A stretch of 64,000 nt of DNA from an uncultured Alphaproteobacteria bacterium (GCA_944392295.1 CALXWE010000008.1:12474-76473); one strand, 5' to 3'; counted from the stretch's first letter, positions 6,274-44,505 are shown. Notes: generated from the sequence alone by a model not told the origin. Numbers and translations: made by a program.

Positions 6274-6331
6274 GGATTATCATTGAAAATTATAAATGTT
6301 TCTGGTAGTGTATTTCCAAAGGAGATGTGGT

Positions 6332-6904: not shown

Positions 6905-6918
6905 ATTGTTTAAGGGAA

Positions 6919-10667: not shown

Positions 10668-11184
10668 TTTTATAAAAATACATTGGTTTGGACTTATTTT
10701 ATCGGTTGTAGCCGTATTTTACACGGCTGTCTTTGTAATGGTATTTTTATCGCCGCGTCAAGATGAGCTCAAAAGGGGATTTATACCTTGTACCGAAATT
10801 TTGGTACAAGATATGTTTGATTGTAACGGTAAGGCGTGGTGTATGAGCAAAGCCATTGTTAAAAACACCGGCTGTGATACCAAAATCGTTTTGGAAGGTT
10901 TGGGTAATTGGGTTAAAGGCAAACAGTCAACACCATGGGCTAATTATTTGTTTGAGCCACGCATAGATAAAGAAAATAATCAAGACGAGAAACATCCCGA
11001 ACTTGAAGAATTTTACAGAGATAATCGCGATATAAAAGCCGATATGGAAAAGTTAAACAGACAGTGGCAGGAGCTTGAAAAATCATTGCCTAATGATAAA
11101 ATAACTGAAGTTCCCGTCAAAGAACAAGCTGTAAAGGAAAATAAGGAGGAAGTAAAAGATGAGCAAACAGCAAGTAAAGAATAA
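10660..11184 (+). CDS. hypothetical membrane-anchored protein with acidic/lysine-rich C-terminus
   Basis: One N-terminal TM helix (FGLILSVVAVFYTAVFVMVF), four cysteines, coupled start overlapping the glmU stop. Confidence 0.4.
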   Translation: MLNFIKIHWFGLILSVVAVFYTAVFVMVFLSPRQDELKRGFIPCTEILVQDMFDCNGKAWCMSKAIVKNTGCDTKIVLEGLGNWVKGKQSTPWANYLFEPRIDKENNQDEKHPELEEFYRDNRDIKADMEKLNRQWQELEKSLPNDKITEVPVKEQAVKENKEEVKDEQTASKE

Positions 11185-13084: not shown

Positions 13085-14233
13085 CTACCAACGATGTTCG
13101 TCAGTAGTATTCTTGAGGTAGTCAACAAAAGCGTTGATGTTGTCTCCGCCTTTGTATTTTCCACCCAAGAAGGTCTGGTAATTCTCCAAATCAGCCCTGA
13201 GCTCACGCTCATAGCTTTCTTTGGAGAAAGCCCCCCTGGCGTGGAGATCGCTGAGGATGAGTTCCAAGACGGCGTCCTTGTGGGATACGCCATAGAGCAT
13301 TTCTGCTCCGTTAGGCCAGCCCATATTGTTGAACTTACGGATAAGCTGAACAAATGTGGACCAGTCGGCATCCTCAACCCCCGGCATCAGGTACCGCTCA
13401 GGATTTTGAGAGGTTGTTTTCCCCTCAAAAGTTACGGTATCCTTTTTGAGTGGCCAGATGGCTGCTGCAACATATCCGAGCATTATTTCGGACAGGCGCC
13501 CGTCAACGACCTCAAGGTCGTCAATAATCGGGCAGTGTGCCAGTACGAAGTTCATCTTCGCATCGGCATACCGGACGTCTTTTGCCTTTAGCAGGAATTC
13601 TGCCAAAACGCGTTTGTCATAAAACGCATTGCCGGAGCAGAGCACAAATGTCACCTCTTTACCTGCCTCTTTAGCGAACTGGTAAAGCTCGTCAAAGTTA
13701 CCGGCGGTATCGGTATCCTGGCACACACGCTCGTTGGCGCGAACGTAACTTCTTGGAGCAAGTTGCTCCAGAAGATTGATGTATGTCTTGTACTCGGCCT
13801 GATACATGATACCAGGCTGATTAAAGACTTCTTCATAGAGGCCTTTATTTCCGCCTAAACCAATAGGCAGAACCGGCAGCAGATCATCTGTCTGCTTGGC
13901 GTAAAATCGCACCATTTCCATGGTACAAAGATGCGCTGTCATAATCCCTGAGAAGCATACGGCAACCGGGTTGACCATATTTTTTGGCAGGTTATACAAG
14001 TCGCATACGCGAGCCTCTGACATTGTCCCTTGAGCGTTGGTGTATTTATACACTTCTCCGGGACGACATCCGCCGACACGTTCAGCCTCTTTAAGAACCT
14101 TTGCCCAATATTCAGGCTCCAGCTCTCGCGGTGCTAAAGCTCCCACGGTCTCATACACCTGACGTCTGCCGTCTGCATTGCAGCGGTAACCATTCTTTTC
14201 CAAAATTGCGATGATTTCTTTGCTTTTGTTCAT
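13085..14233 (-). CDS. hypothetical protein, anomalously GC-rich (likely horizontally acquired)
   Basis: 382 aa intact ORF. Local GC is about 48% against a mid-30s % background, and codon usage is visibly different (CTG, GGC, CCG rich). Own hairpin terminator at 13037..13060. No family recognised from sequence. Confidence 0.5.
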   Translation of the reverse strand: MNKSKEIIAILEKNGYRCNADGRRQVYETVGALAPRELEPEYWAKVLKEAERVGGCRPGEVYKYTNAQGTMSEARVCDLYNLPKNMVNPVAVCFSGIMTAHLCTMEMVRFYAKQTDDLLPVLPIGLGGNKGLYEEVFNQPGIMYQAEYKTYINLLEQLAPRSYVRANERVCQDTDTAGNFDELYQFAKEAGKEVTFVLCSGNAFYDKRVLAEFLLKAKDVRYADAKMNFVLAHCPIIDDLEVVDGRLSEIMLGYVAAAIWPLKKDTVTFEGKTTSQNPERYLMPGVEDADWSTFVQLIRKFNNMGWPNGAEMLYGVSHKDAVLELILSDLHARGAFSKESYERELRADLENYQTFLGGKYKGGDNINAFVDYLKNTTDEHRW

Positions 14234-14483: not shown

Positions 14484-14870
14484 TTATTTATTATTTTCGT
14501 TGCACATTTCAGGGTAGAGCCATTCACCGTCTAAAACATTACAACCCTCTTTTACAAAATTAAATTTACAATTTTGAGTTTTGAGGTTGTAAGCTTTCTG
14601 GTTACGCAGGCAAATTGTTTTAACCATATCCTGCGTTATGCAGTTAGCGGTTTTGCAATTTTGGATAATGTCAATTTCTTCATCGGTAAGTTTAATACAG
14701 CCAAAATCTTCACCCCATTTAAAGCAGTCGGTACGACAAGTTTTTTTATCATAATCCCACACGCCGCCGTGGGAGGTACAATACTCTATTTGGTGATTAC
14801 GATACGAAACAAAAAGCACCACAAGTGCCACAACTACGAGCAATTTCCATAACACATGTATTATTTTCAT
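14484..14870 (-). CDS. small secreted cysteine-rich protein (hypothetical)
   Basis: N-terminal hydrophobic signal/anchor LLVVVALVVLFVSY. Ten cysteines within 100 aa. Confidence 0.45.
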   Translation of the reverse strand: MKIIHVLWKLLVVVALVVLFVSYRNHQIEYCTSHGGVWDYDKKTCRTDCFKWGEDFGCIKLTDEEIDIIQNCKTANCITQDMVKTICLRNQKAYNLKTQNCKFNFVKEGCNVLDGEWLYPEMCNENNK

Positions 14871-22021: not shown

Positions 22022-22119
22022 ATTATCTCCTTAAAAGCCTAAAAGATAATAGGTTATTTATTTTAAGATTTCCAATAGCAATAGCTTTTTTCCCACAGAT
22101 ATATTCAACAAATTTGGTT

Positions 22120-22160
22120 TCAAAAAAAGTTGACAAACAAGACACAAAAAAGTTGACAAA
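22120..22160 (+). promoter_or_regulatory. duplicated TTGACA -35-like boxes (AAAAAAGTTGACAAA x2) upstream of a membrane-protein gene
   Basis: Direct repeat aaaaaaagttgacaaacaagacacaaaaaagttgacaaag in an intergenic region divergent from priA. Confidence 0.25.
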
Positions 22161-22221
22161 GAAAAAATATTGGTTCATTTTAACAAATGATTATTTATTA
22201 TTTAAAAACTATTACAAACTT

Positions 22222-22689
22222 ATGTTAAAAACTATTGTAAAATCGCTTGTAAAGAGCGTATTGATTGGACTGCTTGTCGGTCTTGTGTTGTGGTTAGTGT
22301 CATGGAATTGGGCATTTACGGTATTTGCCGGAGTTTTTGCCGTGGCGTTAACACTGTTAATCATTTTTTTGATAGCCGTTATTACTCGGCGCAAAGTGCT
22401 GTTATCTCTTACACTGGCAGCATTGGTGATGTTGATTGTCGGGTATGTTATAGGCTTTATCTTGGGTTTTGGTCAGATGTACGAATGTAAAAGCGTCTTT
22501 GCCCAAACCATGATTAATGCCTTAGGCGGGTCGGCTGTTTTGTTATTTGCCGTTACCATTTGGAGCGGTATGGTCGGAATAGTTGCGGATTTGAAAAATT
22601 CGCAACTACGTAAAAAGACGATAAGCAAATGCTTAAGGTGGGTATTTATAATAGCCGTCGGCATATTGTTTCTCGTATTTATAAAATAG
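22222..22689 (+). CDS. hypothetical integral membrane protein (four TM helices)
   Basis: ATG at 22222 chosen rather than the ORF-track start at 22114, which would run through the promoter-like repeats. Highly hydrophobic. Confidence 0.4.
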   Translation: MLKTIVKSLVKSVLIGLLVGLVLWLVSWNWAFTVFAGVFAVALTLLIIFLIAVITRRKVLLSLTLAALVMLIVGYVIGFILGFGQMYECKSVFAQTMINALGGSAVLLFAVTIWSGMVGIVADLKNSQLRKKTISKCLRWVFIIAVGILFLVFIK

Positions 22690-22809: not shown

Positions 22810-24732
22810 ATGCATGGACTTCACCCTTTGATAATAGATTTAACTTTAATTGCCATTTATGCGGCAATTACGACATTAATTTTTAAAAAGCTCAAACAAC
22901 CTATGGTATTAGGCTACTTATTGGCGGGTATTTTTGCCGGTCCGTATTTTAATTTTGTGCCCACGGTAACCGACAGAGCCAATTTAACTTTATGGGCAGA
23001 TATCGGGGTCATTTTTTTGTTATTCAGTTTAGGGCTGGAATTTAGTTTCAAAAAGATGATAAGCGTTGGTAAATCGGCGATGATAACGGCAACTTTAAAC
23101 ATTTTTTTGATGTTGTTTGTGGGCTATTACATCGGTCTTTTTCTTAACTGGACAGCCATAGACAGTTTCTTTTTAGGTTCCATGATTTCCATGTCGTCGA
23201 CCACCATTATCATTAAAGCGTTTGATGATTTAAATGTTAAAAAACAAAAATTTACCGACTTAGTATTCGGAGTTTTGGTAATTGAAGACATTATGGGAAT
23301 TTTATTGTTGGTATTGCTTCCGACGGTAGCTCTTGGCAGCGGCATAAACGGCGAGCAACTGGGCTTTGACGTATTAAAGCTGCTGTTATTTTTAGTAATA
23401 TGTTTTGTAACCGGCATTTACTTAATACCGACAATGCTTAAAAAGATTGACAATTTTTTAAACGATGAAATGTTGTTGGTAGTAACGATAGCCTTGTGCT
23501 TAAGTATGGTATGTCTGGCGGTATATTCCGGTTTTTCATCGGCATTAGGGGCGTTTATTATCGGCTCTATTTTATCGGAAACGGGAGCGGTAAAGCGTAT
23601 AGAGGGGGTTATTAAGCCGTTAAAAGATTTTTTCGGCGCGGTCTTTTTTGTAACGGTAGGTATGATGGTAGATCCGTCAATGTTTGTTACGTACGCATAT
23701 CCGATATTTATAATAACCTTGGTGGTATTAATGGGTAAAGTTGCCTTTTCGGTATTTGGCTTTGTGATTTCGGGGCAAAATTTAAAAACGGCGATAAGCA
23801 GTGGCTTTTCTTTAGCGCAAGTCGGCGAGTTTGCCTTTATTATTGCGGCTTTAGGTATGAGCTTGGGAGTAATTGATGGTTTTGTATATCCGATTATCGT
23901 AGCGGTATCGGTCATCACCACTTTTTTAACGCCGATTATGATAAAATCGGCAAGTCGGGTTTATAAGCTGGCAGATAAGTTACTTCCTTTGAGCTGGCAA
24001 GAATACATCAACAATAGTTCGCAATACGGGGTTACGACGGTAACCGAAGAGAAGCTGTGGAAGGCACTATTTAAGAGTTATTTTTTGCGAATGTTTTTAT
24101 TTTCGGCCATATTATATGTGATAATCGCCTTTGTTGACAGAATGGTTCGCCCTTACGCAGCGATGATTTTACCTGATATGCCCAAGCGAATATTTTTAAC
24201 GATGCTTGCGTTTGTGATGATGGCGCCGTTTTTAAAAGCGTTAACGAGTTGGAGTTTTGTTGTGCCCGATTTATTAAACAAGGTACTAATCAAAATGCAT
24301 TTAAGAAAAGCCGTAGACAGCGGTCATGACAAGTGTGAAGGAAATATGCCGATAAACAACGCCTGTGTCCCCTCATCACAAACTTTAATAAGAGAGGTAT
24401 TAAAAGGCGGCAATATTACTGATTTTTTGGCATCCAACCAACGGATTGCACGTATTTATGCCGTGTTGTGGTACGATAGACCTGCCAATCGGCTGCCGCT
24501 GCTGATATTAACCGGCATGAGACTGTTGCTGGCGGCATTTTTCATTGCGACGGCGGTTTACCAGTTTTTGACTGAAAATACCAAAGTCGTAATGATTTTG
24601 TTGGTCTTTTCCGTATGGCTGATTATGCAGTCTAAATGGCTGCTCAACCAGTATTTAAAAATCGAGAACCAGTTTTTAAGCAATTTGCACGGTGAGCCGA
24701 GCGACGATACCGATAGCCGCGACCAAGCTTAG
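22810..24732 (+). CDS. cation:proton antiporter (CPA2 / Na+/H+ exchanger family) with an extra C-terminal membrane domain
   Basis: About 12 TM helices with CPA-like profile (GLEFS, GAFIIGSILSETG). C-terminal 250 aa hydrophobic rather than a KTN domain. Confidence 0.65.
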   Translation: MHGLHPLIIDLTLIAIYAAITTLIFKKLKQPMVLGYLLAGIFAGPYFNFVPTVTDRANLTLWADIGVIFLLFSLGLEFSFKKMISVGKSAMITATLNIFLMLFVGYYIGLFLNWTAIDSFFLGSMISMSSTTIIIKAFDDLNVKKQKFTDLVFGVLVIEDIMGILLLVLLPTVALGSGINGEQLGFDVLKLLLFLVICFVTGIYLIPTMLKKIDNFLNDEMLLVVTIALCLSMVCLAVYSGFSSALGAFIIGSILSETGAVKRIEGVIKPLKDFFGAVFFVTVGMMVDPSMFVTYAYPIFIITLVVLMGKVAFSVFGFVISGQNLKTAISSGFSLAQVGEFAFIIAALGMSLGVIDGFVYPIIVAVSVITTFLTPIMIKSASRVYKLADKLLPLSWQEYINNSSQYGVTTVTEEKLWKALFKSYFLRMFLFSAILYVIIAFVDRMVRPYAAMILPDMPKRIFLTMLAFVMMAPFLKALTSWSFVVPDLLNKVLIKMHLRKAVDSGHDKCEGNMPINNACVPSSQTLIREVLKGGNITDFLASNQRIARIYAVLWYDRPANRLPLLILTGMRLLLAAFFIATAVYQFLTENTKVVMILLVFSVWLIMQSKWLLNQYLKIENQFLSNLHGEPSDDTDSRDQA

Positions 24733-25460
24733 TTCATAAACTTGGTATAAAAAGTATAGTGTATGTAGTACGAAAAGTTTTTTTCGTAGCTGTCAGGGCT
24801 TCCGCAATAGGAGTATATCTCATTTAAGCTGATGGTACGTAAACATCCGGCATAATCATGCATCGTAACATATTGGCAGTTAGAATCTCCATAAATTCTA
24901 CCCACTGAAAAATCCGAATTGGCCGTCCATATTTGCATATAAAATAACTTATCGCTATAGCCTTTGGCAATACTTAGCATATTTACGCATTGTTCATGGG
25001 TGGTAAAGACAAGTTGAAATGTGCAGTAATTAGCATCACACTGCAGTGCCATAACTTTATTATTAAATATGTCATATATCTGATTAGTTTTTTTATTGAG
25101 CATCTCATCAGGGACAATGCCGAGCTTAATTAACATATCTTTGGTCAGCTGCGACTTATCGGAAGAGGGAATGCGCGCGGCAGCCATACAAAGACCATCA
25201 AGAATAGCGGAAATCTGCTGGGTTTGCCGGTTAAGTTTGTACTTGTTCATCGCTTTAGAATATCCGGCAATAGCGCCGACGGAAAGTACGCCGATTATGG
25301 CAAGAACACCGAGCATTTCAACCATGCTTCTTCCGGAAAAAGTCGCATCTACTGGCGATTTTGCTCCTCGTGTACCTTTTGTTGTACACGTCGTTACAAA
25401 ATTGCTGCGTATCTGCAGCTTTTTTCGGAAGAATGACCGCCTCAGTTCATAAAATTTCAT
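24729..25460 (-). CDS. type IV pilin-like protein (prepilin-type class III signal peptide), paralog 1, carrying a 36 aa in-frame insertion in the leader
   Basis: GRSMVEMLGVLAIIGVLSVGAIAGYSKAM: Gly(-1), Glu(+5) and a 20 aa hydrophobic helix typical of pilin N-methylation domains. Cysteine pairs in the variable C-terminal half. Confidence 0.6.
   Translation of the reverse strand: MKFYELRRSFFRKKLQIRSNFVTTCTTKGTRGAKSPVDATFSGRSMVEMLGVLAIIGVLSVGAIAGYSKAMNKYKLNRQTQQISAILDGLCMAAARIPSSDKSQLTKDMLIKLGIVPDEMLNKKTNQIYDIFNNKVMALQCDANYCTFQLVFTTHEQCVNMLSIAKGYSDKLFYMQIWTANSDFSVGRIYGDSNCQYVTMHDYAGCLRTISLNEIYSYCGSPDSYEKNFSYYIHYTFYTKFMN
25326..25433 (-). mobile_element. 108 bp RPE-like miniature palindromic element inserted in-frame in pilin paralog 1
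   Basis: Absent from paralogs 3 and 4 at exactly this point (between ELGRS and MVEML). 15 bp terminal inverted repeats TTCTTCCGAAAAAAG / CTTTTTCCGGAAGAA. Internal CGTGTAC..GTACACG stem. Length is a multiple of 3. Confidence 0.6.
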
Positions 25461-25545
25461 CTAAAAGCCTCCGAGTTTGGGTTGTTAAAGGCATTTAAAC
25501 GAAATCATAAACCGTTTTTTTTTTTTGCAATCAAAAAGAGTCCCG
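25461..25545 (-). promoter_or_regulatory. conserved upstream module of the pilin-like gene family (copy 1) with a 12 nt poly-T/A tract
   Basis: ctaaaagcctccgagtttgggttgttaaaggcatttaaacgaaatcataaaccg-T12-gcaa. The same module is found upstream of all four paralogs. Contains TTGCAA and TATGAT hexamers on the coding strand. Confidence 0.5.
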
Positions 25546-25585
25546 TGTTGAAAAACGAGCTGTGGCAGGCTTTAAAAACAACGAG

Positions 25586-26038
25586 TTAGCGTTTTTGCTT
25601 AAAGAAATCTTTCAAAATTATTGAAGACTGCTCTTCCAAAATACCGTAAGTTACTTGCGGCTTATGGTGGCAGGTCGGCTGATTAAAAAATTGCACACCG
25701 CTTACAACGGCTCCGCCCTTTGCATCAACTGCGCCAAAAATTAAACGGCGGATTCGGGCAAAAGAAATGGCGGCGGCACACATAGTACAGGGTTCTAACG
25801 TAACATATAAATCCAAATTCCAAAGTCGTTTACTGCTAAGCTTTTTGCAAGCCTTATTTATTGCCGTAATTTCGGCGTGGGCAGTTGGGTTATTGCCATG
25901 TTCGGTTTTGTTATAAGCCTTGGCAACAATTTTCCCGGTATCTGGGTCAACAATTACAGCACCTATCGGAACCTCATCTTGAGTATAGGCTTTTTTAGCC
26001 TGTTTTAAGGCAATTTGCATAAAATCTTCGTCGGTCAT
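25586..26038 (-). CDS. tadA: tRNA-specific adenosine deaminase
   Basis: HAEITAI and PCTMCAAAI zinc-binding CDA motifs. Start at internal ATG 26036..26038 (MTDEDFMQIAL); the ORF-track start further upstream is TTG and would add a hydrophobic N-terminus. Confidence 0.85.
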   Translation of the reverse strand: MTDEDFMQIALKQAKKAYTQDEVPIGAVIVDPDTGKIVAKAYNKTEHGNNPTAHAEITAINKACKKLSSKRLWNLDLYVTLEPCTMCAAAISFARIRRLIFGAVDAKGGAVVSGVQFFNQPTCHHKPQVTYGILEEQSSIILKDFFKQKR

Positions 26039-26106
26039 AAATATCCTTTGAGTTTTTAAAAATTTAGAGTATATTACAGCAAAATTTACAATTAGGAAAG
26101 ATAAAA

Positions 26107-26829
26107 ATGGCAGAAAGATTAGCAAAGTTTATGGCGCGTTCGGGAGTGTGCTCCAGAAGAGAGGCGGAAGAGTATATCAAGCAAGAGCGCGTAACCGTAA
26201 ATGGTGAAGTTGTTTCAACGCCGGCATTTAATGTTGAAGGCACGGAAAAAATTTTGTTTGATGGCGAGAAGTTGCCGCAAAAAGATAAAACTCGTCTGTG
26301 GCTTTACCACAAACCGGCAGGTTTAATTACTACCCACAAAGATGAACAAGGACGCGAAACGGTATTTAGTCATCTACCACTCGGTATGCCCAGAGTTATA
26401 AGTGTCGGCAGACTTGATTTAAATTCGGAAGGGTTGCTTTTGCTTACCAACAACGGAGAGCTTTCAAGAGAACTGGAACTGCCGCAAAATGCATGGAGCC
26501 GTCGTTACAGGGTAAGAGTTCACGGTAAAGTTGATAAACAAAAACTGGAGAGTTTGGCTGGAGGTGTCGAGGTCGACGGTATAGCTTATGGTAAGGTTGT
26601 TGCGGTCATAGATTCTCAAAACGGCAGCAATGCATGGCTTACGGTGACTTTAAACGAAGGTAAAAATCGCGAAATTCGTAAATTAATGAAATTTATTGGC
26701 TTGGAGGTAGCTCGTTTAATCAGAGTTTCGTACGGACCGTTTCAACTCGGAAGTTTAAAAAAGGGCGAGGTTCGCGAAGTACCGCAAAAAGTGCTAAAAG
26801 AACAACTGGGCGGAAGATTTAGTTTATGA
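26107..26829 (+). CDS. rRNA pseudouridine synthase (RsuA/RluB family) with N-terminal S4 domain
   Basis: S4-like MARSGVCSRREAEEYIKQERVTVNGEVV followed by LWLYHKP ... GRLDLNSEGLLLLTNNGEL catalytic motif. Confidence 0.8.
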   Translation: MAERLAKFMARSGVCSRREAEEYIKQERVTVNGEVVSTPAFNVEGTEKILFDGEKLPQKDKTRLWLYHKPAGLITTHKDEQGRETVFSHLPLGMPRVISVGRLDLNSEGLLLLTNNGELSRELELPQNAWSRRYRVRVHGKVDKQKLESLAGGVEVDGIAYGKVVAVIDSQNGSNAWLTVTLNEGKNREIRKLMKFIGLEVARLIRVSYGPFQLGSLKKGEVREVPQKVLKEQLGGRFSL

Positions 26830-27371
26830 GAATAATTGCCGGAAAATATCGCGCTAAAAAACTGTTTGCACCGGAAAATAAAGATGTTCGTCCTACTTCC
26901 GACAGAGCCAGAGAAGCGCTTTTTAGTATTATCTATTCACGTATTGGCAGTTTAGATTCATACAAAGTGCTGGATATTTTTGCCGGTACCGGGGCTTTTG
27001 GCTTTGAGGCTTTGTCAAGAGGCGCCTTAAAAGTGTGCTTAATTGATAAAAATGTTAAACTTATCAACAAAAATCTAAGTTTGTTTGCTAAAGATGCGCA
27101 AAGAGTTAAGGTTTTATGTACAGATGCCTTGAATCTGCCTAATAGCTTAGAGAGCTACAATTTGATATTTTCAGATGCTCCTTATGCTCAAGGTCTAAGC
27201 TCTAAGGCGTTAATTGAAGCTGCCGGCAAGGGCTGGATAGCAGATAATGCTTTGTGTTTGGTCGAAACCCGTAAAGACGAAAGTTTAGATTTGCCGGAAA
27301 ATTTTATTTCTCTTGATGCAAGAATGTACGGCTTGGCTAAGGTATGGTTTTATACCTACAAAAAAGATTAG
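26826..27371 (+). CDS. rsmD: 16S rRNA (guanine966-N2)-methyltransferase
   Basis: VLDIFAGTGAFGFEALSRGA SAM-binding motif and DAPY motif. Overlaps the preceding gene by 4 bp. Confidence 0.8.
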   Translation: MRIIAGKYRAKKLFAPENKDVRPTSDRAREALFSIIYSRIGSLDSYKVLDIFAGTGAFGFEALSRGALKVCLIDKNVKLINKNLSLFAKDAQRVKVLCTDALNLPNSLESYNLIFSDAPYAQGLSSKALIEAAGKGWIADNALCLVETRKDESLDLPENFISLDARMYGLAKVWFYTYKKD

Positions 27372-27460
27372 GCTTAAAATTTTTTTGACAAAAATATTGA
27401 TATTTGATTTATAGTGTGGTAAATTTCAAGTAACATTAAGTAAAAAATACGGAGTTTTTT

Positions 27461-29524
27461 ATGGCACGCACTTACCTTAACATCAATACGGTTAATCATA
27501 GTCATCAAAACAACAGCTATGAAAATATTCAGCAAGAGCTTGATAAAAAAGAGCAAGATATTCAAAACAATCTTACACGGATTCGTGAACAGATGCTCAA
27601 CTCCGGTGAGGGTGATGATAGCGCATTAAAAGCCGAAGCGGAAGCGTATCGGGCAAGACTTAGCCAAACATTGGAAGATAAGGAATTTTTAGAAAAATAT
27701 CCTGATACTTTTCCTTATTTATATTCGTTCCGTGAGCATGGAGAAATTGACGATATTTCAGGTAAGTTGACTGAAGTTCTTGATGATGAGCAAGAGATTA
27801 TTACGGAAGCGCAAGATGTTAATCCGAAAGAAGAGCGCTTGGAATTATCTTATGAGCTTGATGGTGTCCCGTTTAGTGTTTCGGTTGATCCGTATGACAA
27901 ACCCGGCGAAGATGATCGTCAATTAAGAGGTCGTATAAGTTTTACCGATAAATCAATTGAAGAGCTAAACGAATCTCGGTTAAAGGCTATTTTAGAATTT
28001 TGTGAGAAGCACGGTTTTTCATCGTATGATATAGATATTCCTATGAAAGACGGAGTTGTCGATTTAGATGAAAAGTTGGCTGAATTAACTAAAAAGGTTC
28101 TGGAAGAGAAAAAACAGCAAGATATTGCAAATCCTGGAGCCGGACCGGAAGATCTTTCCCCTGAGCATTTTAATGTTTTAGAGACACAACTTGATGATTT
28201 AAATTTGGAGGCTGATGGCAAAACTCCAATTAAAAAGGCTAAAAAACCTCAAACTTATGAAGATATTCGTGCTGCGATGATTGAAATGTTTGAGCAGGAT
28301 ATGAAAAAGACCAGAGGTTTAAGCTATTTTGAAAATCGTAAAGGTTTAGACGGTCTGAAAACAGCAGTTTTTAGCATTTATGACAAGCCGGATCCCGACA
28401 ATATGAAAAAAGACGGTATTAAAGATAAGAACGGTATTTATGTACCGACCTATGCCTTTCGTTTTTACTTGGCGCAAGATCCTAAAGACGGACACTACGT
28501 ATTCGGCTATTCAACTCCTGGCGGCAAAAAAATGGATGACACCATGGCCGGCGACTTTTTAGGTATAGTTAAAAAGACCGGAGCGACACACGTTAAATTT
28601 TCATCTTTATCAAGTGTTGATAAAGGCGTATGGATGATGGCGTGTGCTGAAAAAGGGTTAGTTCCGATAGGAATAAGTCTTAATATGGCCAAAGCTAAAA
28701 AGATGGTAGATGCTGCCAAGAATAAATTAAGCTCTGAAGAGTTTAACTTATTTAAAAAACGCTTAGGCGCGCAGATGCTTGAAAATGCCCAAAAGAAGAA
28801 TGCTGATGATAAATACTTCGGCTTACCGAAATCCGAGTACGATTTTATTCAGAATTTGAAGACCGGCTATGAGTTCAGCAACTTCAAGTTTGCCTTTGAA
28901 GACGAGGGAGGTCTATATACGACTACCATGCAAAAGATTAACGAAGGCGCATCAGACAGCAAAGAAGGAGCTGCAACCACGTTCGGAGCCATGAGTGCAT
29001 TAAGAGATGTGTTTGATATTTATATGAAATATCAGCATGAACCGTTTGGTAAATTCCTGCAAGAAGGTACGAGTGGTCGCCGAGAGCTTACCAAAGAAGA
29101 GTTAGATACTTTAAAGATGATTCCTGCTGACAGATCTTTTATGGATTTAACCAAGGAAGACTTTATGGCAATTTACAACACATTGTTGCCTCGTCGAATT
29201 GAGGATGCAAAGCAAGATATTTACAAGGCTTACAGACGCGAGTTGAAACGTAAACCGCAGCGTGCCGACGGTGTTGTTTTAGGTAGCGATTTATTCCCGA
29301 AAGTTAAGGCGGAAGTTAATGGCATTAACATTGCTCTAACGAGAAACGGTATAGATACCTTAACATTACCGAATGAACACAGCGGTTTGGAGTTTGCCCG
29401 TCCTGATTGGCTGCAACCGGGAGCGCAAAATACGCAAACTACGCAGCAAAGTAATACCAATCAATCAACGGCAGGAAATGCTGCAGTTAATGCTCAAGCG
29501 CAGAATGCCGGTAACTCAAGGTAG
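27461..29524 (+). CDS. large acidic hypothetical protein with Q/N/T-rich C-terminal low-complexity tail (lineage-specific; candidate secreted effector)
   Basis: 687 aa, no signal peptide or TM helices. Charged coiled-coil-like N-terminus. C-terminal QNTQTTQQSNTNQSTAGNAAVNAQAQNAGNSR tail. Followed by a strong bidirectional terminator. Confidence 0.5.
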   Translation: MARTYLNINTVNHSHQNNSYENIQQELDKKEQDIQNNLTRIREQMLNSGEGDDSALKAEAEAYRARLSQTLEDKEFLEKYPDTFPYLYSFREHGEIDDISGKLTEVLDDEQEIITEAQDVNPKEERLELSYELDGVPFSVSVDPYDKPGEDDRQLRGRISFTDKSIEELNESRLKAILEFCEKHGFSSYDIDIPMKDGVVDLDEKLAELTKKVLEEKKQQDIANPGAGPEDLSPEHFNVLETQLDDLNLEADGKTPIKKAKKPQTYEDIRAAMIEMFEQDMKKTRGLSYFENRKGLDGLKTAVFSIYDKPDPDNMKKDGIKDKNGIYVPTYAFRFYLAQDPKDGHYVFGYSTPGGKKMDDTMAGDFLGIVKKTGATHVKFSSLSSVDKGVWMMACAEKGLVPIGISLNMAKAKKMVDAAKNKLSSEEFNLFKKRLGAQMLENAQKKNADDKYFGLPKSEYDFIQNLKTGYEFSNFKFAFEDEGGLYTTTMQKINEGASDSKEGAATTFGAMSALRDVFDIYMKYQHEPFGKFLQEGTSGRRELTKEELDTLKMIPADRSFMDLTKEDFMAIYNTLLPRRIEDAKQDIYKAYRRELKRKPQRADGVVLGSDLFPKVKAEVNGINIALTRNGIDTLTLPNEHSGLEFARPDWLQPGAQNTQTTQQSNTNQSTAGNAAVNAQAQNAGNSR

Positions 29525-29547
29525 AGTTATTTAAGATTAAGCAATTA

Positions 29548-29580
29548 AACAAAGCCGCCTTTTAAAAGGCGGCTTTGTTT
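29548..29580. terminator. bidirectional rho-independent terminator (AAACAAAGCCGCCTTTTAAAAGGCGGCTTTGTTT)
   Basis: Perfect 12 bp stem with A/T runs on both sides, sitting between convergent genes. Confidence 0.7.
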
Positions 29581-29588
29581 GGTTTTGA

Positions 29589-30293
29589 TTATTTTTGTAG
29601 CAAAATCATTAATCTTTTAAATCCGTTTTTACAAATAGTTAAAGAATCTGATGTGTCTAATCTAGGGTAAGCTGAATTTGAATTATGAGTTCCTTTGTAT
29701 ATTGCTGTATTGCCATCGTCGGTAAGAAGGCTGGTACTGCTGATATTATCATAATAAAGTTTGGTAACGTTCATCATCTGTATGCAATAGGCAATATTAG
29801 TCTCATTAGATGCAGTAAGATTTTCGTTGATTGTAAAATACATCCTCCGCCAATCGGTTGTATCCTGTATAACTATTTGATTTTCCAAACTGTCAAAAAG
29901 CCTATCTGTGTAGCCGTCTTTCAACATATATTCCGGCACGCTGTCAAGTGTTATAAGGTATGGTATAATATTGTCCGTGTTACTGTTGCCGTTTTTTGGG
30001 GTTTTTGATTGTAGATATTCAAATGATACTGAGAGTAGATAACTTAATTCTTGAGAGCTTTTATTTAATCGATATTTTAGTATTGCCTTAGAGTAGCCGG
30101 AGAGAGCGCCGACCGATAAAACACCGATTATCGCCAATACTCCAAGCATTTCGACCATGCTTCTTCCGGAAAAAGTCGCATCTACTGGCGATTTTGCTCC
30201 TCGTGTACCTTTTGTTGTACACGTCGTTACAAAATTGCTGCGTATCTGCAGCTTTTTTCGGAAGAATGACCGCCCGAGTTCATTAAATTTCAT
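29589..30293 (-). CDS. type IV pilin-like protein, paralog 2, with the same 36 aa in-frame leader insertion
   Basis: N-terminal 70 aa nearly identical to paralog 1. Divergent C-terminal domain. Confidence 0.6.
   Translation of the reverse strand: MKFNELGRSFFRKKLQIRSNFVTTCTTKGTRGAKSPVDATFSGRSMVEMLGVLAIIGVLSVGALSGYSKAILKYRLNKSSQELSYLLSVSFEYLQSKTPKNGNSNTDNIIPYLITLDSVPEYMLKDGYTDRLFDSLENQIVIQDTTDWRRMYFTINENLTASNETNIAYCIQMMNVTKLYYDNISSTSLLTDDGNTAIYKGTHNSNSAYPRLDTSDSLTICKNGFKRLMILLQK
30159..30266 (-). mobile_element. 108 bp RPE-like palindromic element, second copy, in-frame in pilin paralog 2
   Basis: Sequence essentially identical to the 25326..25433 copy, at the same position of the gene. Confidence 0.6.
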
Positions 30294-30375
30294 CTAAAAT
30301 CTCCAAAGTTTGGGTTGTTAAAGGACTTTAAACGAAATCATAAACTGTTTTTTTTTTGCAACTTTAAAAGGAGCC
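30294..30375 (-). promoter_or_regulatory. conserved pilin-family upstream module (copy 2), poly-T tract of 10 nt
   Basis: ctaaaatctccaaagtttgggttgttaaaggactttaaacgaaatcataaactg-T10-gcaactttaaaagga. Confidence 0.5.
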
Positions 30376-30709
30376 GCGTAGATGATGCCTTTTTAAAAGC
30401 TTGTTTTTTACAAGTTGAAAATTGCTTTAAAACAACAGAATATACTTGCAAATTAAAAGAAAATGGTGTAAAAAAATCGCAAATTAAAAGCCTATTATTT
30501 GGTGAATCTGGTCCGAGTTTGGCTTTATGCCTAGGGGTTCGGCCGATTCGGCCGTATTTTTTTGCGTTTGTGAAAATGCTTAAAAATATGTAAAAAACGT
30601 TTTTTATATTAACCTTCTGTTTGCGGGTTTTGGTATTATCGGTTAGTGCCGTAATAATGCCGATAGAATGGCTGCAGAATTATAGCTTAAAGAAAAGGAT
30701 AAAAGTGCA

Positions 30710-39096
<8,387 letters not shown>

Positions 39097-39113
39097 GCTA
39101 AAGCCAAATAACA

Positions 39114-39146
39114 AAAAACCGTGCTTTTTTAAGCACGGTTTTTTGT
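39114..39146 (+). terminator. rho-independent terminator of rpoBC (AAAAAACCGTGCTTTTTTAAGCACGGTTTTTTG)
   Basis: Perfect 9 bp stem followed by a T-run, 18 bp after the rpoC stop. Confidence 0.8.
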
Positions 39147-39189
39147 ATCCCCAAAGCCCTACATTTTAGGGGTTGTTTGAGATAGACAG

Positions 39190-39822
39190 TCAAGGTATTA
39201 AATTGAAATATAACACGCAAGCTTTTTCGGAATAACAAGTATTGCAGATTTGATCAATATCGCTAATCGACATATTTTTTAGGCAATTAACTTTTGAAGT
39301 ACAGTAATTATTACCGTAAAGTATGCCAGTTTTGTTTCCAAAGCCATCGGTTAGATGGACATAATATACATCATTAACAAACTGTCGGGCAATGTTTAAG
39401 ATATTGATGCAAACTTGTTTATTTTCATTATCTATGGTCATATTGCTTCCTGATCCAGAATCGTCTTTTTTTAAGTATGTTGTAAAATGATAATATATAC
39501 CATCATATAATATATCTATAACATTGTTAAAATTATCGTAAATCTTGCTTCCCTTATACGTCATACCGTCTGGAACAAGGTTTAGTTGGTAAAAAATTTT
39601 ATCTAATATATGAGTTTCTTCAGCATAGTTATAATTATGCAAATATTCTCGAAATCGGACACCGTTTGCTATAAGAGTGCTAAAAGCTTCAGCGTGTTTA
39701 TTGAGTTTATATTTAAGCATTGCTTTGGAATAACCCGAGATAGCCCCAACCGATAAAACGCCGATTATTGCCAGCACGCCGAGCATTTCGACCATTGACC
39801 GTCCAAGTTCATAAAATTTCAT
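39190..39822 (-). CDS. type IV pilin-like protein, paralog 3 (short leader, no insertion)
   Basis: MKFYELGRSMVEMLGVLAIIGVLSVGAISGYSKAMLKYKLNK followed by a divergent Cys-rich C-terminus. Confidence 0.6.
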   Translation of the reverse strand: MKFYELGRSMVEMLGVLAIIGVLSVGAISGYSKAMLKYKLNKHAEAFSTLIANGVRFREYLHNYNYAEETHILDKIFYQLNLVPDGMTYKGSKIYDNFNNVIDILYDGIYYHFTTYLKKDDSGSGSNMTIDNENKQVCINILNIARQFVNDVYYVHLTDGFGNKTGILYGNNYCTSKVNCLKNMSISDIDQICNTCYSEKACVLYFNLIP

Positions 39823-39905
39823 CTAAAATCTCCAAAGTTTGGGTTGTTAAAAGACTTTAAACGAAATCATAAACCGTTTTTTTTTTTTGCAACTTTAAAA
39901 GGAAA
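39823..39905 (-). promoter_or_regulatory. conserved pilin-family upstream module (copy 3), poly-T tract of 12 nt
   Basis: Same 80 bp module as the other copies. Confidence 0.5.
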
Positions 39906-39918
39906 AGCCGTGTAAAAC

Positions 39919-40545
39919 TTACCCTGCGCGAACAAAGCCCCAAGAAAATCCAATGCGGCAGTATCCCGATTGTTGACAAGTACGGCAATATTCTTGCATA
40001 TCAGTCAGCTTCAAATCTTTAAGACAATCTCGATTATCGGTACAATATTCATCACCATCGGTTGCCAAAATTGTTCCACCGTCCAATAAAAAGGAGAAAT
40101 GCCATAAAGAGGCGCTGCGCTGTTGCATTAATTTTGCAATATTAAAGCATACATCAATATCTCGTTTAGAAACAACTATGTTCATACTAAAATATGTACC
40201 AACTTGCTCTTTTACGTATTCGACTTTTGTTTGATTGCCGAGGGCATCGTAGATAGAAACGTCATTGTCGGTTCGAATCATTTCATCGGGGATGATGTTC
40301 ATTTTTTTTATCAATGACATAAATTTTCCTGGATCGGTAGATATATTGCCACGGTCACGGCTAAATTCATCGGCGTGAATTAGTAAATTATCCATAATAA
40401 AAGTGATTTGGTCTGCTTGTTTATTAAGTTTATATTTTAACATCGCCTTAGAATATCCGGCAATAGCGCCCACCGATAAAACGCCGATTATCGCTAAGAC
40501 ACCTAACATCTCGACCATAGAACGACCAAGTTCATTACATTTCAT
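39919..40545 (-). CDS. type IV pilin-like protein, paralog 4 (short leader)
   Basis: MKCNELGRSMVEMLGVLAIIGVLSVGAIAGYSKAMLKYKLNK followed by a divergent Cys-rich C-terminus with CxxC. Confidence 0.6.
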   Translation of the reverse strand: MKCNELGRSMVEMLGVLAIIGVLSVGAIAGYSKAMLKYKLNKQADQITFIMDNLLIHADEFSRDRGNISTDPGKFMSLIKKMNIIPDEMIRTDNDVSIYDALGNQTKVEYVKEQVGTYFSMNIVVSKRDIDVCFNIAKLMQQRSASLWHFSFLLDGGTILATDGDEYCTDNRDCLKDLKLTDMQEYCRTCQQSGYCRIGFSWGFVRAG

Positions 40546-40625
40546 CTAAAATCTCCAAAGTTTGGGTTGTTAAAGGGCTTTAAACGAAATCATAAACCGT
40601 TTTTTTTTTTGCAACTTTAAAAGGA
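40546..40625 (-). promoter_or_regulatory. conserved pilin-family upstream module (copy 4), poly-T tract of 11 nt
   Basis: Same module. Confidence 0.5.
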
Positions 40626-40667: not shown

Positions 40668-41984
40668 TTATTGTAAGTATCTAAGGTAAAGGTAAATGCC
40701 GGAGATTAATATACTAACGACCATAACCGGCACGGACCAAATTAAAAACTTGGCAAAGCTTATGGGGTGTCCTTCACGTTGGGCAAGCCCTGCCACAATA
40801 ACGTTGGCCGAAGCTCCGATTAGTGTTCCGTTTCCGCCAAAGCATGCTCCCAAAGATAATGCCCACCATACCGGCATCATGGCTTCTCTGCCGCCCATTG
40901 AAACTTCCATTGATTGCAGCATGGGTATCATGGTAGCCACAAACGGAATATTATCAATGGCAGAAGATAATACCGCCGAAGAACCTAAAATTAGAAATAC
41001 CGTTTTTTCAATATTACCTTCGGTTAATTGTACAAACCATTGTCCGAGTGATTGTAAAATGCCGGTAACTTCCAAGCCTGATACTAAAATAAACAGTCCG
41101 CAGAAAAAGAAAATGGTTGTCCAGTCTACCAAATTAAAAATATTTTCGGTTTTTTCGTCGCGCTCATCATGTTTTTCGCCCCAGGTATAGAGCAATAACA
41201 GTATTGCCGCCCCGAATAAGGCTATTACACCGTTGGCTATGTGAGTGTGCTCGGATGATATAAAGCCTAGTATAACTGCTATTAATACAATCAAAGATTT
41301 ATAAAGTAATTTTTTATCGGTGATGCTGTCTTTTTCATTTATACTCATCACCATGGCTCGATTTCTTTCCGATGTGTTTAGACCGTTTTTCCAAATCAAA
41401 ACAAACATAAGCGTCAAAACAAGCATTACAATCAAGACCAGCGGAGCCAAATTAACAATAAAATCGGTAAAAGAGAGCCCCAAAGACGAACCGATTAAAA
41501 TATTTGGCGGATCGCCGATAAGAGTAGCCGTACCGCCGATATTAGAGGCAAATATTTCTAATATAAGGTAAGGGAAGGGGTTAATTTCCAACTTTCGAGT
41601 AATCTGAAACGTAACCGGCACAATTAACAAAACCGTGGTAACGTTATCTAAAAATGCCGAAAAGAAAGCCGTTACCATAGCTAATACAGCCAAAATACCC
41701 AAAGGGTGGGCTTTAACTTTTTTAGCTCCCCAAATAGCCACAAACTGAAACAAACCTGATTTTTCGGTAATATTAACAATAATCATCATTCCGATGAGTA
41801 AAGATATGGTATTAAAATCGATACCGGCAAAGGCTTGAGCCTGAGTTAATACGCCGCAAAAAATCATTACGGTTGCGGCAAACAGTGCTACAACGGCGCG
41901 ATTAATTTTTTCGGTAAATAATACCGCATAACAAAGCACAACAATTGAAGTTGCAATCCATTTTAAGTCTATACCGAACATCAA
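40668..41984 (-). CDS. ArsB/NhaD-superfamily ion transporter permease (anion or Na+/H+ antiporter type), tandem copy A
   Basis: About 12 TM helices. Conserved DNVTTVLLIVPVT and GDPPNILIGS blocks typical of the CitMHS/ArsB/NhaD fold. Confidence 0.6.
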   Translation of the reverse strand: MMFGIDLKWIATSIVVLCYAVLFTEKINRAVVALFAATVMIFCGVLTQAQAFAGIDFNTISLLIGMMIIVNITEKSGLFQFVAIWGAKKVKAHPLGILAVLAMVTAFFSAFLDNVTTVLLIVPVTFQITRKLEINPFPYLILEIFASNIGGTATLIGDPPNILIGSSLGLSFTDFIVNLAPLVLIVMLVLTLMFVLIWKNGLNTSERNRAMVMSINEKDSITDKKLLYKSLIVLIAVILGFISSEHTHIANGVIALFGAAILLLLYTWGEKHDERDEKTENIFNLVDWTTIFFFCGLFILVSGLEVTGILQSLGQWFVQLTEGNIEKTVFLILGSSAVLSSAIDNIPFVATMIPMLQSMEVSMGGREAMMPVWWALSLGACFGGNGTLIGASANVIVAGLAQREGHPISFAKFLIWSVPVMVVSILISGIYLYLRYLQ

Positions 41985-41991
41985 AAAATCC

Positions 41992-43344
41992 TTACTTTAC
42001 AAAATACATTACATATAAGCATAAGTTTGAAACCATAATTGTTAAAAGCATAACCGGCACGGACCAAATTAAAAAACGCATAAAACTTATGGGGCGTCCT
42101 TCACGTTGAGCAAGTCCTGCCACAATAACGTTGGCCGAAGCGGCAATCAATGAACCATTGCCGCCGAAACAAGCTCCCAAAGATAACGCCCACCATACCG
42201 GCATCATGGCTTCTCTTCCACCCATTGAAACTTCCATCGATTTTATAACAGGTATCATGGTTGCCACAAACGGGATATTATCAATGGCGGCTGAAACAAA
42301 AGCCGAAATCCACAACACAAGAAAAGTGGCTTTTTTAATACTGCCTTGCGTAAGTTCGGTGAGTTTTTCGCCGAGCAAAGATAAAACCCCGACTTGCTCT
42401 AACCCGTACACAATAGAAAACAGTCCGCAAAAGAAGAAAATGGTTGTCCAGTCTACCATAGAAAATATTTCTTCAACTTTACGGTCGCGGTCTTGGTGTC
42501 CATCACCAATCGTATAGAGCAACAATAATACCGACGCTCCGCATAAAGCGATGGTTCCGTTTTGCTGGTGCCAATGCTCTGCGGTTAAAAATCCGCATAT
42601 AACAAGAGCAATTACCGATAATGATTTAAATAATAATTTATAGTCGGTAATACAGTCTTTTTCGTTAATTTGCATAATCAGAGCTTTACTTTCATCGGTT
42701 GCCGTAAGCTTTCTGCCGAAGAATAAATCAAATATAAATACGAGTAACAGCATATTAATAAGCACAATCGGAGCTAAATTAACTACAAAGTCGGTAAAAG
42801 AAAGCCCCAAAGCCGAACCGATTAAAATGTTCGGCGGGTCGCCGATAAGGGTAGCCGTACCGCCGATATTAGAGGCAAATATTTCTAAAATAAGATAAGG
42901 GTAGGGGTTAATTTTTAAGCTGCGGGTAATCTGGAACGTAACCGGCACGATTAACAAAACGGTAGTAACATTATCTAAAAACGCCGAAAAAAAGGCAGTA
43001 ACCAGGGCAAGCATAATCAGAATACCTCGAGGCGAGGCTTTGACTAATTTGGCCGACCATACTGCCACAAACTGAAACAGTCCTGATTTTTCGGAAATGC
43101 CGACAATAACCATCATGCCTATAAGCAGAGCAATAGTATTAAAATCAATACCTGATATAGCGGTTTCTTGAGTTAAGATGCCGGTAAAAATCATAACCGA
43201 AGCGCCGATTAAAGCCACAACCGCTCGGTTAAGTTTTTCGGTAAATAAGATAATATAACTGATAATTAAAATCGCCGATGCCAAAATTTGCGGATTCATA
43301 TTACCAAAAATATTTACGGCTTGTTGAATGTCTTTTATATCCAA
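41992..43344 (-). CDS. ArsB/NhaD-superfamily ion transporter permease, tandem copy B
   Basis: Long identical peptide blocks shared with copy A (e.g. EVSMGGREAMMPVWWALSLGACFGGNG), indicating recent tandem duplication. Confidence 0.6.
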   Translation of the reverse strand: MDIKDIQQAVNIFGNMNPQILASAILIISYIILFTEKLNRAVVALIGASVMIFTGILTQETAISGIDFNTIALLIGMMVIVGISEKSGLFQFVAVWSAKLVKASPRGILIMLALVTAFFSAFLDNVTTVLLIVPVTFQITRSLKINPYPYLILEIFASNIGGTATLIGDPPNILIGSALGLSFTDFVVNLAPIVLINMLLLVFIFDLFFGRKLTATDESKALIMQINEKDCITDYKLLFKSLSVIALVICGFLTAEHWHQQNGTIALCGASVLLLLYTIGDGHQDRDRKVEEIFSMVDWTTIFFFCGLFSIVYGLEQVGVLSLLGEKLTELTQGSIKKATFLVLWISAFVSAAIDNIPFVATMIPVIKSMEVSMGGREAMMPVWWALSLGACFGGNGSLIAASANVIVAGLAQREGRPISFMRFLIWSVPVMLLTIMVSNLCLYVMYFVK

Positions 43345-43794: not shown

Positions 43795-43834
43795 GCCAGT
43801 GGATACTTTGAAAATGAAAAAGAAACCCACCGGC

Positions 43835-44505
43835 TTAGCCGGTGGTTCTTCTTTAACGGGTGTAACCCTAATTGTACCAGCAAACGCCTTAATGGCGTAT
43901 GACGGCCTGACAGAGCGAAGATTACTTGCTACCCGTAAACGGGTCAAAATCCATCGTTAATTGACTTTGTTCCGCGTCTTCTTTAAGTTGATTTCGAATA
44001 TACTCAGTAATTTTTTGAGTATTCTTTCCTGTTGTATCTACATAATATCCACGACACCAAAATTCTCTGTTTCTATATCGGAATTTTGCATTTCCCCACC
44101 GTTCATATATGGCTAAACTACTTTTACCTTTGAGATAGCCCATAACCGAACTTACCGAAAATTTTGGCGGTATCTCTACTAACATATGAATATGATCGGG
44201 ACAAACTTCTGCTTCTATTATGCTTATTCCTTTCCATCGGCATAATTCTCTTAATATTTGACCTATTTCTAGACGACGTCCTCCGTAAAACGCTTTTCTA
44301 CGATATTTAGGGGCGAAGACAACATGATATTTACAATTCCATGTTGTATGTGCTATTGTATGTGTGTTCATAAAAAAACTCCTTTGCTTTTGTTAGACTT
44401 TTGCCAGACCGTCTAACCTTACTTTAGCAAAGGAGTTTTTTTTGTGTAAAGCTGTAAGCTCTTTGGAACTACCGGCCTAGCCGGTAGTTTTCTTGTTACA
44501 AAAAC
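43835..44505 (-). mobile_element. IS200/IS605-family insertion sequence (about 670 bp) bounded by related subterminal hairpins
   Basis: Hairpins ACCCACCGGCTTAGCCGGTGGTT (43838..43860) and AACTACCGGCCTAGCCGGTAGTT (44478..44500) flank a complete Y1 transposase gene. Confidence 0.65.
43922..44371 (-). CDS. tnpA: IS200/IS605-family Y1 (HuH) transposase TnpA
   Basis: 149 aa. HIHMLVEIPP HuH motif and a catalytic Tyr region (RGYYVDT) characteristic of IS200 TnpA. Confidence 0.85.
   Translation of the reverse strand: MNTHTIAHTTWNCKYHVVFAPKYRRKAFYGGRRLEIGQILRELCRWKGISIIEAEVCPDHIHMLVEIPPKFSVSSVMGYLKGKSSLAIYERWGNAKFRYRNREFWCRGYYVDTTGKNTQKITEYIRNQLKEDAEQSQLTMDFDPFTGSK

Follow-up and report, generated by a model that had tools for sequence, protein, structure and literature searches.

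A very large, unannotated family of pilin-like genes with several forms of variation in an uncultured clade of gut Alphaproteobacteria

What are four related genes with dissimilar ends doing among the housekeeping genes of a gut bacterium, and why are their front parts so alike? The question is raised by a 64-kb stretch of DNA (GCA_944392295.1, CALXWE010000008.1:12474-76473; hereafter the window), with a G+C content of 39%, from a horse-gut metagenome-assembled genome (MAG) of an uncultured Alphaproteobacteria bacterium. An earlier note had described four minus-strand open reading frames (ORFs) in the window as type IV pilin-like paralogues with a near-identical promoter and 5′ coding module, and ORF calling recovers all four exactly where the note had placed them. 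These genes, here called A to D, belong to an unannotated, very large, lineage-specific family of pilin-like proteins, marked by Arg at position +1, dozens of complete paralogues, promoter poly-A tracts of variable length, hairpins in the leader and exchange of gene bodies. Probably, and we hold this with moderate confidence, they are members of a massively expanded family of type IVb-like pilins that varies in three layers: the promoter, the gene body and the leader.

24729..25460, minus strand: gene A, a pilin-like prepilin of 243 amino acids (aa) with a 108-nt leader insertion; mature part ~200 aa with 7 Cys
29589..30293, minus strand: gene B, a pilin-like prepilin of 234 aa with a 108-nt leader insertion; mature part with 2 Cys only
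39190..39822, minus strand: gene C, a pilin-like prepilin of 210 aa with a leader of 6 residues up to the Gly; its protein was modelled; its body is 98-100% identical in a lineage with an rpoC of only ~80% identity
39919..40545, minus strand: gene D, a pilin-like prepilin of 208 aa with a short leader

The encoded prepilins combine a short basic leader with an invariant N-terminus, which after the Gly of the expected cleavage site reads RSMVEMLGVLAIIGVLSVGAI.GYSKAM.KYKLNK. The shared string GRSMVEMLGVLAIIGVLSVGA(I/L)(A/S)GYSKA recurs in 4/4 genes, and the Gly is followed by RSMVEMLGVLAIIGVLSVGA in all four and in 35/35 aligned homologues. Thus the Gly(−1), Glu(+5) and hydrophobic helix that had first suggested pilins are invariant across thousands of homologues, and so, within the family, is Arg(+1). 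The common start MKF(Y/N)ELGRS does not extend to D (MKCNELGRS) or A (MKFYELRRS), and the 108-nt leader insertion of A and B had gone unmentioned; the earlier observation was real and its description incomplete. A six-frame scan of the window finds class-III-like N-termini in genes A-D only, and the upstream module CGGTTTATGATTTCGTTTAAA occurs there in exactly four copies, one before each gene.

Behind this N-terminus the proteins had been held to diverge completely. Instead, the alignment runs throughout, with invariant Pro, Asp, Asn and Cys positions, and six Cys positions are conserved across the family in an alignment of 35 homologues. The paired C-terminal cysteines claimed for every copy are found in A, C and D, whose mature parts have 7, 6 and 6 Cys, and not in B, whose two Cys lie 51 residues apart. 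The body is a variable alpha-beta globular domain of ~165 residues, usually with three Cys pairs; the AlphaFold2 model of the gene C protein has a predicted local distance difference test score (pLDDT) of 85.9 and a predicted template modelling score (pTM) of 0.77. When a profile of the 35 homologues was compared with PDB sequences, it matched only the type IVb pilins TcpA and bundlin, weakly (E ~0.45), with the N-terminal helix of TcpA aligned in register. Gene A by itself gave a weak Bundlin match (E 0.012). For the family protein, a match to CofA and TcpA, both of them major type IVb pilins, takes in the whole protein over ~155 residues; the comparison also named PilM of an Escherichia coli type IVb cluster, CofB, TcpB, PilS and PilA1. 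Together with the invariant N-terminus and a prepilin peptidase in the clade (below), the TcpA and bundlin matches support the pilin-like reading, and the description that fits best is that of type IVb-like pilins which combine Gly(−1), Arg(+1) and Glu(+5).

The likeness to known type IVb pilins is partial. Identity to TcpA of Vibrio cholerae, CofA of the CFA/III pilus of enterotoxigenic E. coli and bundlin BfpA is only 11-15%. In size and first residue the family resembles type IVb pilins, for which a mature length of ~180-200 aa and a residue other than Phe at +1 are expected: mature A-D measure 191-203 aa and begin with Arg. In place of the long type IVb leader of ~15-30 residues, C, D and many homologues have a basic leader of 6-9 residues before the Gly, and long leaders (30-100+ residues) arise through inserted elements only. 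The genomic setting differs as well. A type IVb pilin is encoded by one gene heading an operon, whereas this family comprises dozens of scattered paralogues with their own promoters, near which no linked machinery was found. Each gene is a transcription unit of its own amid housekeeping genes: family members occur alone or as tandem units, with rpoBC, transporters, tRNA synthetases and the like as neighbours, and no family member heads an assembly operon.

Which enzyme might process such proteins? The clade encodes a stand-alone A24 prepilin peptidase. On a single 4.7-kb contig from a relative (L081) lie a family gene, groEL, groES and, 2 kb from the family gene, an ORF with both A24 active-site motifs, which is a Peptidase_A24 (PF01478, 61 bits). 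It has 199 relatives of ~237 aa with PF01478 only, some of them named prepilin peptidase [Alphaproteobacteria bacterium], and such enzymes are widespread in the clade. These clade peptidases lack the paired Cys motifs of the PilD type and are solitary among housekeeping genes; NCBIfam supplied no name for the peptidase or for the unannotated ORFs of the window. The earlier note had suggested, on account of Arg(+1), that a noncanonical peptidase might be involved, and the compact, PF01478-only form without PilD-type Cys motifs hints at one, no more. The peptidase would cleave after the Gly, and the mature proteins may then serve as alternative building blocks, with differing exposed domains, of a filament on the cell surface or of a pilus-like apparatus for display or secretion.

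Several results weigh against this picture. Prepilin models, with which the earlier note had proposed to check the proteins, score below cut-off and align with their helix part only (PF07963 N_methyl, 13-14.2 bits against 21.2; TIGR02532, 10.1-10.5 bits against 16.3). To our knowledge, Arg at +1 occurs in no characterised pilin. A Foldseek search of the PDB gave no significant match and no pilin, and dozens of major-pilin-like paralogues per genome are atypical of type IVb systems. The A24 peptidase was seen in clade relatives and not in the window's own genome, and the 64-kb window holds none. As the earlier note had observed, Pfam and NCBIfam scans find no pilus assembly genes in the window: no T2SSE-type ATPase, no platform protein and no secretin. 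A motif scan of ~560 kb around family genes likewise found no assembly ATPase or secretin, and Pfam analysis of further contexts, those of two peptidase relatives and of three more family genes, revealed no machinery. The candidates for secretion ATPases and similar proteins that the motif scan did raise were only FtsK, PriA and UvrB, plus one true peptidase. Thus, of the parts that the earlier note had wanted sought beyond the window, the peptidase is present in the clade, and no ATPase, platform protein or secretin appeared in a total of ~0.7 Mb sampled around family and peptidase genes.

Two rival readings draw on these results. Sub-threshold prepilin models and Arg at +1 would suit ordinary, uncleaved, signal-anchored membrane proteins in which the G....E pattern is a coincidence. 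We regard this as highly improbable: thousands of members have G-R-S and the Glu without exception, an inserted element even re-creates them, a prepilin peptidase occurs in the clade in linkage with a family gene, and the fold was judged to match type IVb pilins, although Foldseek returned no pilin from the PDB. A more serious contender is that the proteins are pilin-like in signal and fold without being filament subunits. They would then be surface or periplasmic proteins that use the class III signal only for processing and for anchoring or release, comparable to the archaeal class-III-signal binding proteins and to the prepilin-signal families of Planctomycetes, Verrucomicrobia and Elusimicrobia. 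The surroundings of >100 family genes yielded no assembly ATPase, platform or secretin, the peptidase is a solitary gene, paralogues number dozens per genome, and the weak NCBIfam matches of the family include the Verru_Chthon cassette protein D and pseudopilin GspH, all of which speak for this alternative. We nevertheless think it rather unlikely, since the match to CofA and TcpA covers the whole protein and not the N-terminus alone, and since the N-terminal 34 residues are conserved far beyond the need of a plain membrane anchor, as one would expect of residues that pack in the core of a filament or dock onto a machine. The planctomycete, verrucomicrobial and elusimicrobial families do share with this one their tens to hundreds of paralogues per genome, prepilin-type N-termini and diverse C-terminal parts. 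However, they are recognised by TIGR02532 or PF07963 and have a Phe-type +1 residue, whereas neither model recognises the present family, whose globular domain is type IVb-like.

That the type IVb-like proteins form a variable surface family, as the earlier note had proposed, fits the size and diversity that database searches reveal. A word-indexed search returned at least 7,854 members at 90% clustering, none with a Pfam domain and none given a name other than MAG: hypothetical protein [Alphaproteobacteria bacterium]. In an exhaustive profile search, clusters at 50% identity numbered 5,634 at E ≤ 1e-3, 4,015 at E ≤ 1e-10 and 685 at E ≤ 1e-30. One sample alone held 28 mutually distinct genes, with variable parts ≤70% identical, and in the species of the window at least seven paralogues share the promoter module. 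Gut metagenomes, human and ruminant ones among them, contain relatives, and contigs frequently break at the conserved 5′ module. Neither the viral contigs of IMG/VR nor the plasmids of PLSDB yielded a family member. In the literature, no paper turned up for the motif, and a search for the clade together with pili gave nothing relevant. As a side observation, a human-gut relative carries Terminase_3, DUF6362 and repressor-like Peptidase_S24 genes between two family genes (L001, 6272..8838), which suggests a prophage remnant.

How, then, might so many complete genes be used? The first layer of variation lies in the promoter, where each gene of the window carries the same module:

25461..25530, minus strand: promoter and 5′ untranslated region (UTR) module of A, with TTGC, A12 (25515..25526), CGGTT, TATGAT (−10-like), conserved 5′ UTR, GGAG and ATG
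30294..30361, minus strand: promoter and 5′ UTR module of B, with a poly-A tract of 10 (30348..30357)
39823..39892, minus strand: promoter and 5′ UTR module of C, with a poly-A tract of 12 (39877..39888)
40546..40614, minus strand: promoter and 5′ UTR module of D, with a poly-A tract of 11 (40600..40610), which is 12 in two other samples of the species

The order is always TTGC, A(10-12), CGGTT, TATGAT, a conserved 5′ UTR of ~45 nt, GGAG and ATG; other species keep the layout as TTGC-A(9-10)-CGCGAGC-TAAAAT, so that across species the tract stands between TTGC(AA) and a TAxxAT hexamer. In the common form TTGC stands a constant 17 nt from the −10-like hexamer. Runs of at least nine A or T are scarce elsewhere: there are 46 in 558 kb, mostly these promoter tracts. 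Among ~10 genes that could be compared between samples, four differ in length by one A, with tracts of 11/12/12 for D, 12/12/12/12/11 for a 247-aa paralogue, 10/10/11/10/10 for P0044 and 10/9/10 for another. The layout is that of slipped-strand on/off switching, and a tract that varies by one base between paralogues and populations would switch individual genes. Two points must be added to those already weighed: the −35-like and −10-like elements lie only 13-15 nt apart, which leaves the promoter geometry uncertain, and one-base homopolymer differences between assemblies can be assembly noise. Given this spacing, and because the tract lengths were read from assemblies in which homopolymer error is possible, phase variation is a thing we infer. 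Beside these tracts stands one outlier, an A-tract of 20 bases without the TTGC motif upstream of the gene C orthologue in L003 (9780..9800), which is either an extreme expansion or an assembly artefact.

Promoter homopolymer tracts are known from fim2, fim3 and fimX of Bordetella pertussis and from vlp of Mycoplasma hyorhinis. There, as here, paralogous surface-subunit genes unlinked to assembly genes carry a promoter homopolymer of variable length. Here, however, the tract is a poly-A beside TTGC, its geometry is uncertain, the proteins are pilin-like and not chaperone-usher fimbriae or lipoproteins, and switching would be deduced from the layout.

Why are the front parts of the genes so alike? 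The earlier note had ascribed the shared upstream and 5′ coding DNA to recent duplication or gene conversion. Its near-identity holds for the non-coding part, where the 53 nt after the poly-A tract agree at 51/53 positions among B, C and D (45-46/53 for A), and not for the coding part. In the 34 codons from MVEML, genes A-D match pairwise at 27-32/34 amino acids, yet only at 66-81/102 bases and 11-20/34 third positions; the same protein block is invariant across species that share ~40% identity elsewhere. Since synonymous sites are scrambled, recent conversion within the window's genome does not explain the coding block, and since amino acids match where third positions do not, in a block that is invariant across species, its conservation reflects selection on the protein. 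An origin of the whole shared module in recent duplication, or in gene conversion still under way between paralogues of one genome, could still appeal to the 51/53 identity of the non-coding part, to a 108-nt element that is identical in A and B, and to gene C orthologues whose 5′ modules have been swapped with a switch point in the conserved block. Promoter identity could equally reflect regulatory constraint, however, and with the disparity between third positions and amino acids and the invariance of the block between species otherwise only ~40% identical, we judge this origin improbable.

Gene C shows what does move. Over rpoB and rpoC, the window and L003, a species-representative MAG, share 84% aligned identity. 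The body of gene C (~39734..39134) is 98-100% identical in L003, as against 73-89% for the adjacent rpoC, and a further locus (L007) gives the same pattern. Identity switches on within the invariant N-terminal block, at about codons 14-21, and off just after the gene C stop, in the terminator region:

39111..39146, minus strand: terminator-like hairpin 3′ of gene C, in which the identity block shared by the lineages has its 3′ switch point

Transfer of the variable gene C body between lineages is thus recent, and the body is now preceded by three different 5′ modules: one without insert in the window, one with a variant hairpin element and a different promoter region in L007 and L008, and one that encodes MRENDRN-DRPTNTG...AVLSGRS in L003. 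Because the 5′ switch point lies inside the invariant block and the body has been swapped behind three modules, that block acts as a recombination anchor between lineages, and in the second layer of variation the N-terminal coding block and the 3′ terminator together provide the anchors. The gene upstream of C in L003 is not D; its place is taken by a gene (L003, 7242..9563) for a putative surface protein of 773 aa, Cys-rich and repeat-containing, with a signal peptide.

This arrangement recalls pilE and pilS of Neisseria, with their conserved pilin N-terminus and variable C-terminal parts exchanged by homologous recombination, and a competence gene is found in relatives of the window here too. 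Unlike that system, every copy here is complete with promoter, start and N-terminus, there are no silent cassettes, and the exchange observed is between lineages at one locus, not from silent into expressed loci. The competence gene is ComEC (682 aa, with DUF4131 and Competence domains; relatives L098-L102, e.g. L099 16547..18595), which would fit DNA uptake as the route by which pilin gene bodies pass between lineages.

The third layer lies in the leader. In A and B, a 108-nt (36-codon) element separates the start from the GRSMVEML block:

25326..25433, minus strand: 108-nt in-frame hairpin element in the A leader, between the Ser(+2) and Met(+3) codons of the old site
30159..30266, minus strand: 108-nt element in the B leader, 108/108 identical to the A copy

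The element is a near-perfect hairpin (minimum free energy −44.5 kcal/mol, z −7.7), and these are its only two copies in the window. That the A and B copies are identical while the flanking synonymous sites differ suggests that the element was inserted recently or copied in a short conversion tract. S-G-R-S is encoded by the 3′ arm of the element, so that the cleavage site between Gly and Arg-Ser is re-created and the old G-R-S stays behind in the leader. Carriage of G-R-S codons that pair with the 5′ end of the element is true of the subfamily found in the window, L008 and L003. As a general rule for elements it was rejected, because matches of at least 8/10 occur in 9/41 long-leader genes against 19/205 controls, a difference that is not significant; sets of GRS codons did not separate short-leader from long-leader genes.

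Such insertions are common in the family. Long leaders occur in 39 of the 69 family genes with enough upstream sequence, and upstream of MVEML the in-frame open stretch has a median of 71 codons, compared with 13 and 12 when the two alternative frames are read. An in-frame ATG is absent in only one or two genes, and the inserts have thus stayed translatable. The inserts are diverse, at times tandem and often strongly hairpin-forming. Compared by BLAST with all loci, they gave 855 high-scoring segment pairs in leaders and 72 elsewhere, the latter spread over 19 places, of which many lie immediately 3′ of a family gene. Relatives of the window element number 24 by nhmmer, all in the orientation of the family gene and either in its leader or just past its stop. 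No spread over unrelated genes or intergenic DNA was seen, in a sampling that is biased towards family genes. In these relatives the stem is kept by compensatory changes: 11/23 stem pairs have changes on both sides, 93.6% of cells are paired (79.5% in shuffles, 34-52% with slid partners), double-change cells number 41 against 15 expected from shuffles, and the covariation score is 0.405 (0.151 in shuffles, 0.07-0.14 with slid partners). The leader-coding region is thus a hotspot for hairpin elements resembling repetitive extragenic palindromes or miniature inverted-repeat transposable elements, which lie in frame and are stop-free. The simplest ground for their tolerance is likely that the peptidase would remove them with the leader. 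For one further gene, with a variable part that begins LLNALYRHR (L098 vs L100), leader and 5′ UTR together measure 186 nt in two samples but 249 nt in another, a 63-nt indel.

Do the hairpins themselves do something? A stem maintained by compensatory changes, the uniform orientation and position of all 24 detected copies, and the lack of further copies in the window would suit functional cis-regulatory structures in RNA or DNA, such as a translation brake, an mRNA stabiliser, a terminator or a recombination signal. We entertain this as a tentative possibility only. The same gene occurs with the insert, without it or with other inserts in different samples, many unrelated insert types share the same place, tandem inserts occur, as is typical of mobile repeats, and Rfam yields nothing at or above its gathering score between 24000 and 41000. 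In layout alone, the elements are like the Rickettsia palindromic elements, which are palindromes of ~100 nt in an alphaproteobacterium, inserted in frame in ORFs and adding 30-40 residues. They differ from those in being confined almost wholly to the leader region or the 3′ flank of one family, always in the gene's orientation; in addition, the peptide would be removed with the leader, and the window subfamily re-creates the site.

The window also holds an IS200-like element at 43830..44490, seen in other samples of the species as well (L004, L005). Its gene (43922..44371, minus strand) encodes a Y1_Tnp transposase of 149 aa (Pfam, 130 bits) flanked by the hairpins CTACCGGCTAGGCCGGTAG and CCACCGGCTAAGCCGGTGG, with a perfect 17-nt inverted repeat just upstream of the gene at 44372..44442. 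As a mobiliser of the 108-nt element this transposase found no support, because the end hairpins CTACCGGCTAGGCCGGTAG and CCACCGGCTAAGCCGGTGG are unrelated to it.

Taken to its furthest, the evidence could describe a surface-variation system of an undescribed kind: dozens of complete type IVb-like pilin genes, switched by poly-A tracts, exchanging bodies within and between species through the invariant N-terminal block, hosting homing hairpins in their leaders, and encoding prepilins with Arg at +1 that are all processed by a peptidase-only A24 enzyme, with assembly that is unlinked and possibly unconventional. A dedicated hairpin family would home into the cleavable leader, and one subfamily would carry its own G-R-S site. 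This fuller proposal is speculative, and we give it less credence than we give the expanded type IVb-like family itself.

The clade is common in gut metagenomes of humans (Hadza and other cohorts), horses, ruminants and other animals, and is uncultured. Should the proteins prove to be subunits of a pilus, this family probably forms the clade's main variable structure at the cell surface, with relevance to adhesion, evasion of immunity (immunoglobulin A) and of phages, and DNA uptake. As it stands, thousands of clusters have neither a Pfam nor an NCBIfam match and so lack annotation; with a profile of the invariant block of 34 residues, thousands of proteins now called hypothetical would gain an annotation, and the frequent contig breaks in MAGs of the clade would also be explained. 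The family further offers natural experiments in how far a prepilin leader and its +1 position can vary, how palindromic repeats survive inside genes, and how a conserved coding block serves as a portable recombination anchor that moves surface-protein alleles across species.

Some features of the window stand apart from the family. ORFs at 6296..7425, 10660..11184, 13085..14233, 14484..14870 and 22114..22689 encode proteins of 128-382 aa with no class-III-like N-terminus and no Pfam or NCBIfam match. A 687-aa ORF between A and B (27461..29524, plus strand), likewise without a match in Pfam or NCBIfam, is acidic and Lys-rich, with a C-terminal tail rich in Gln, Asn and Thr. It converges on gene B, and between the two stops lies a likely bidirectional terminator:

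29547..29580: perfect palindrome of 17+17 nt between the stops of gene B and the convergent 687-aa ORF

Directly upstream of gene D are two tandem paralogous transporter genes of the CitMHS/ArsB/Na_sulph_symp type (40668..41984 and 41992..43344, minus strand).

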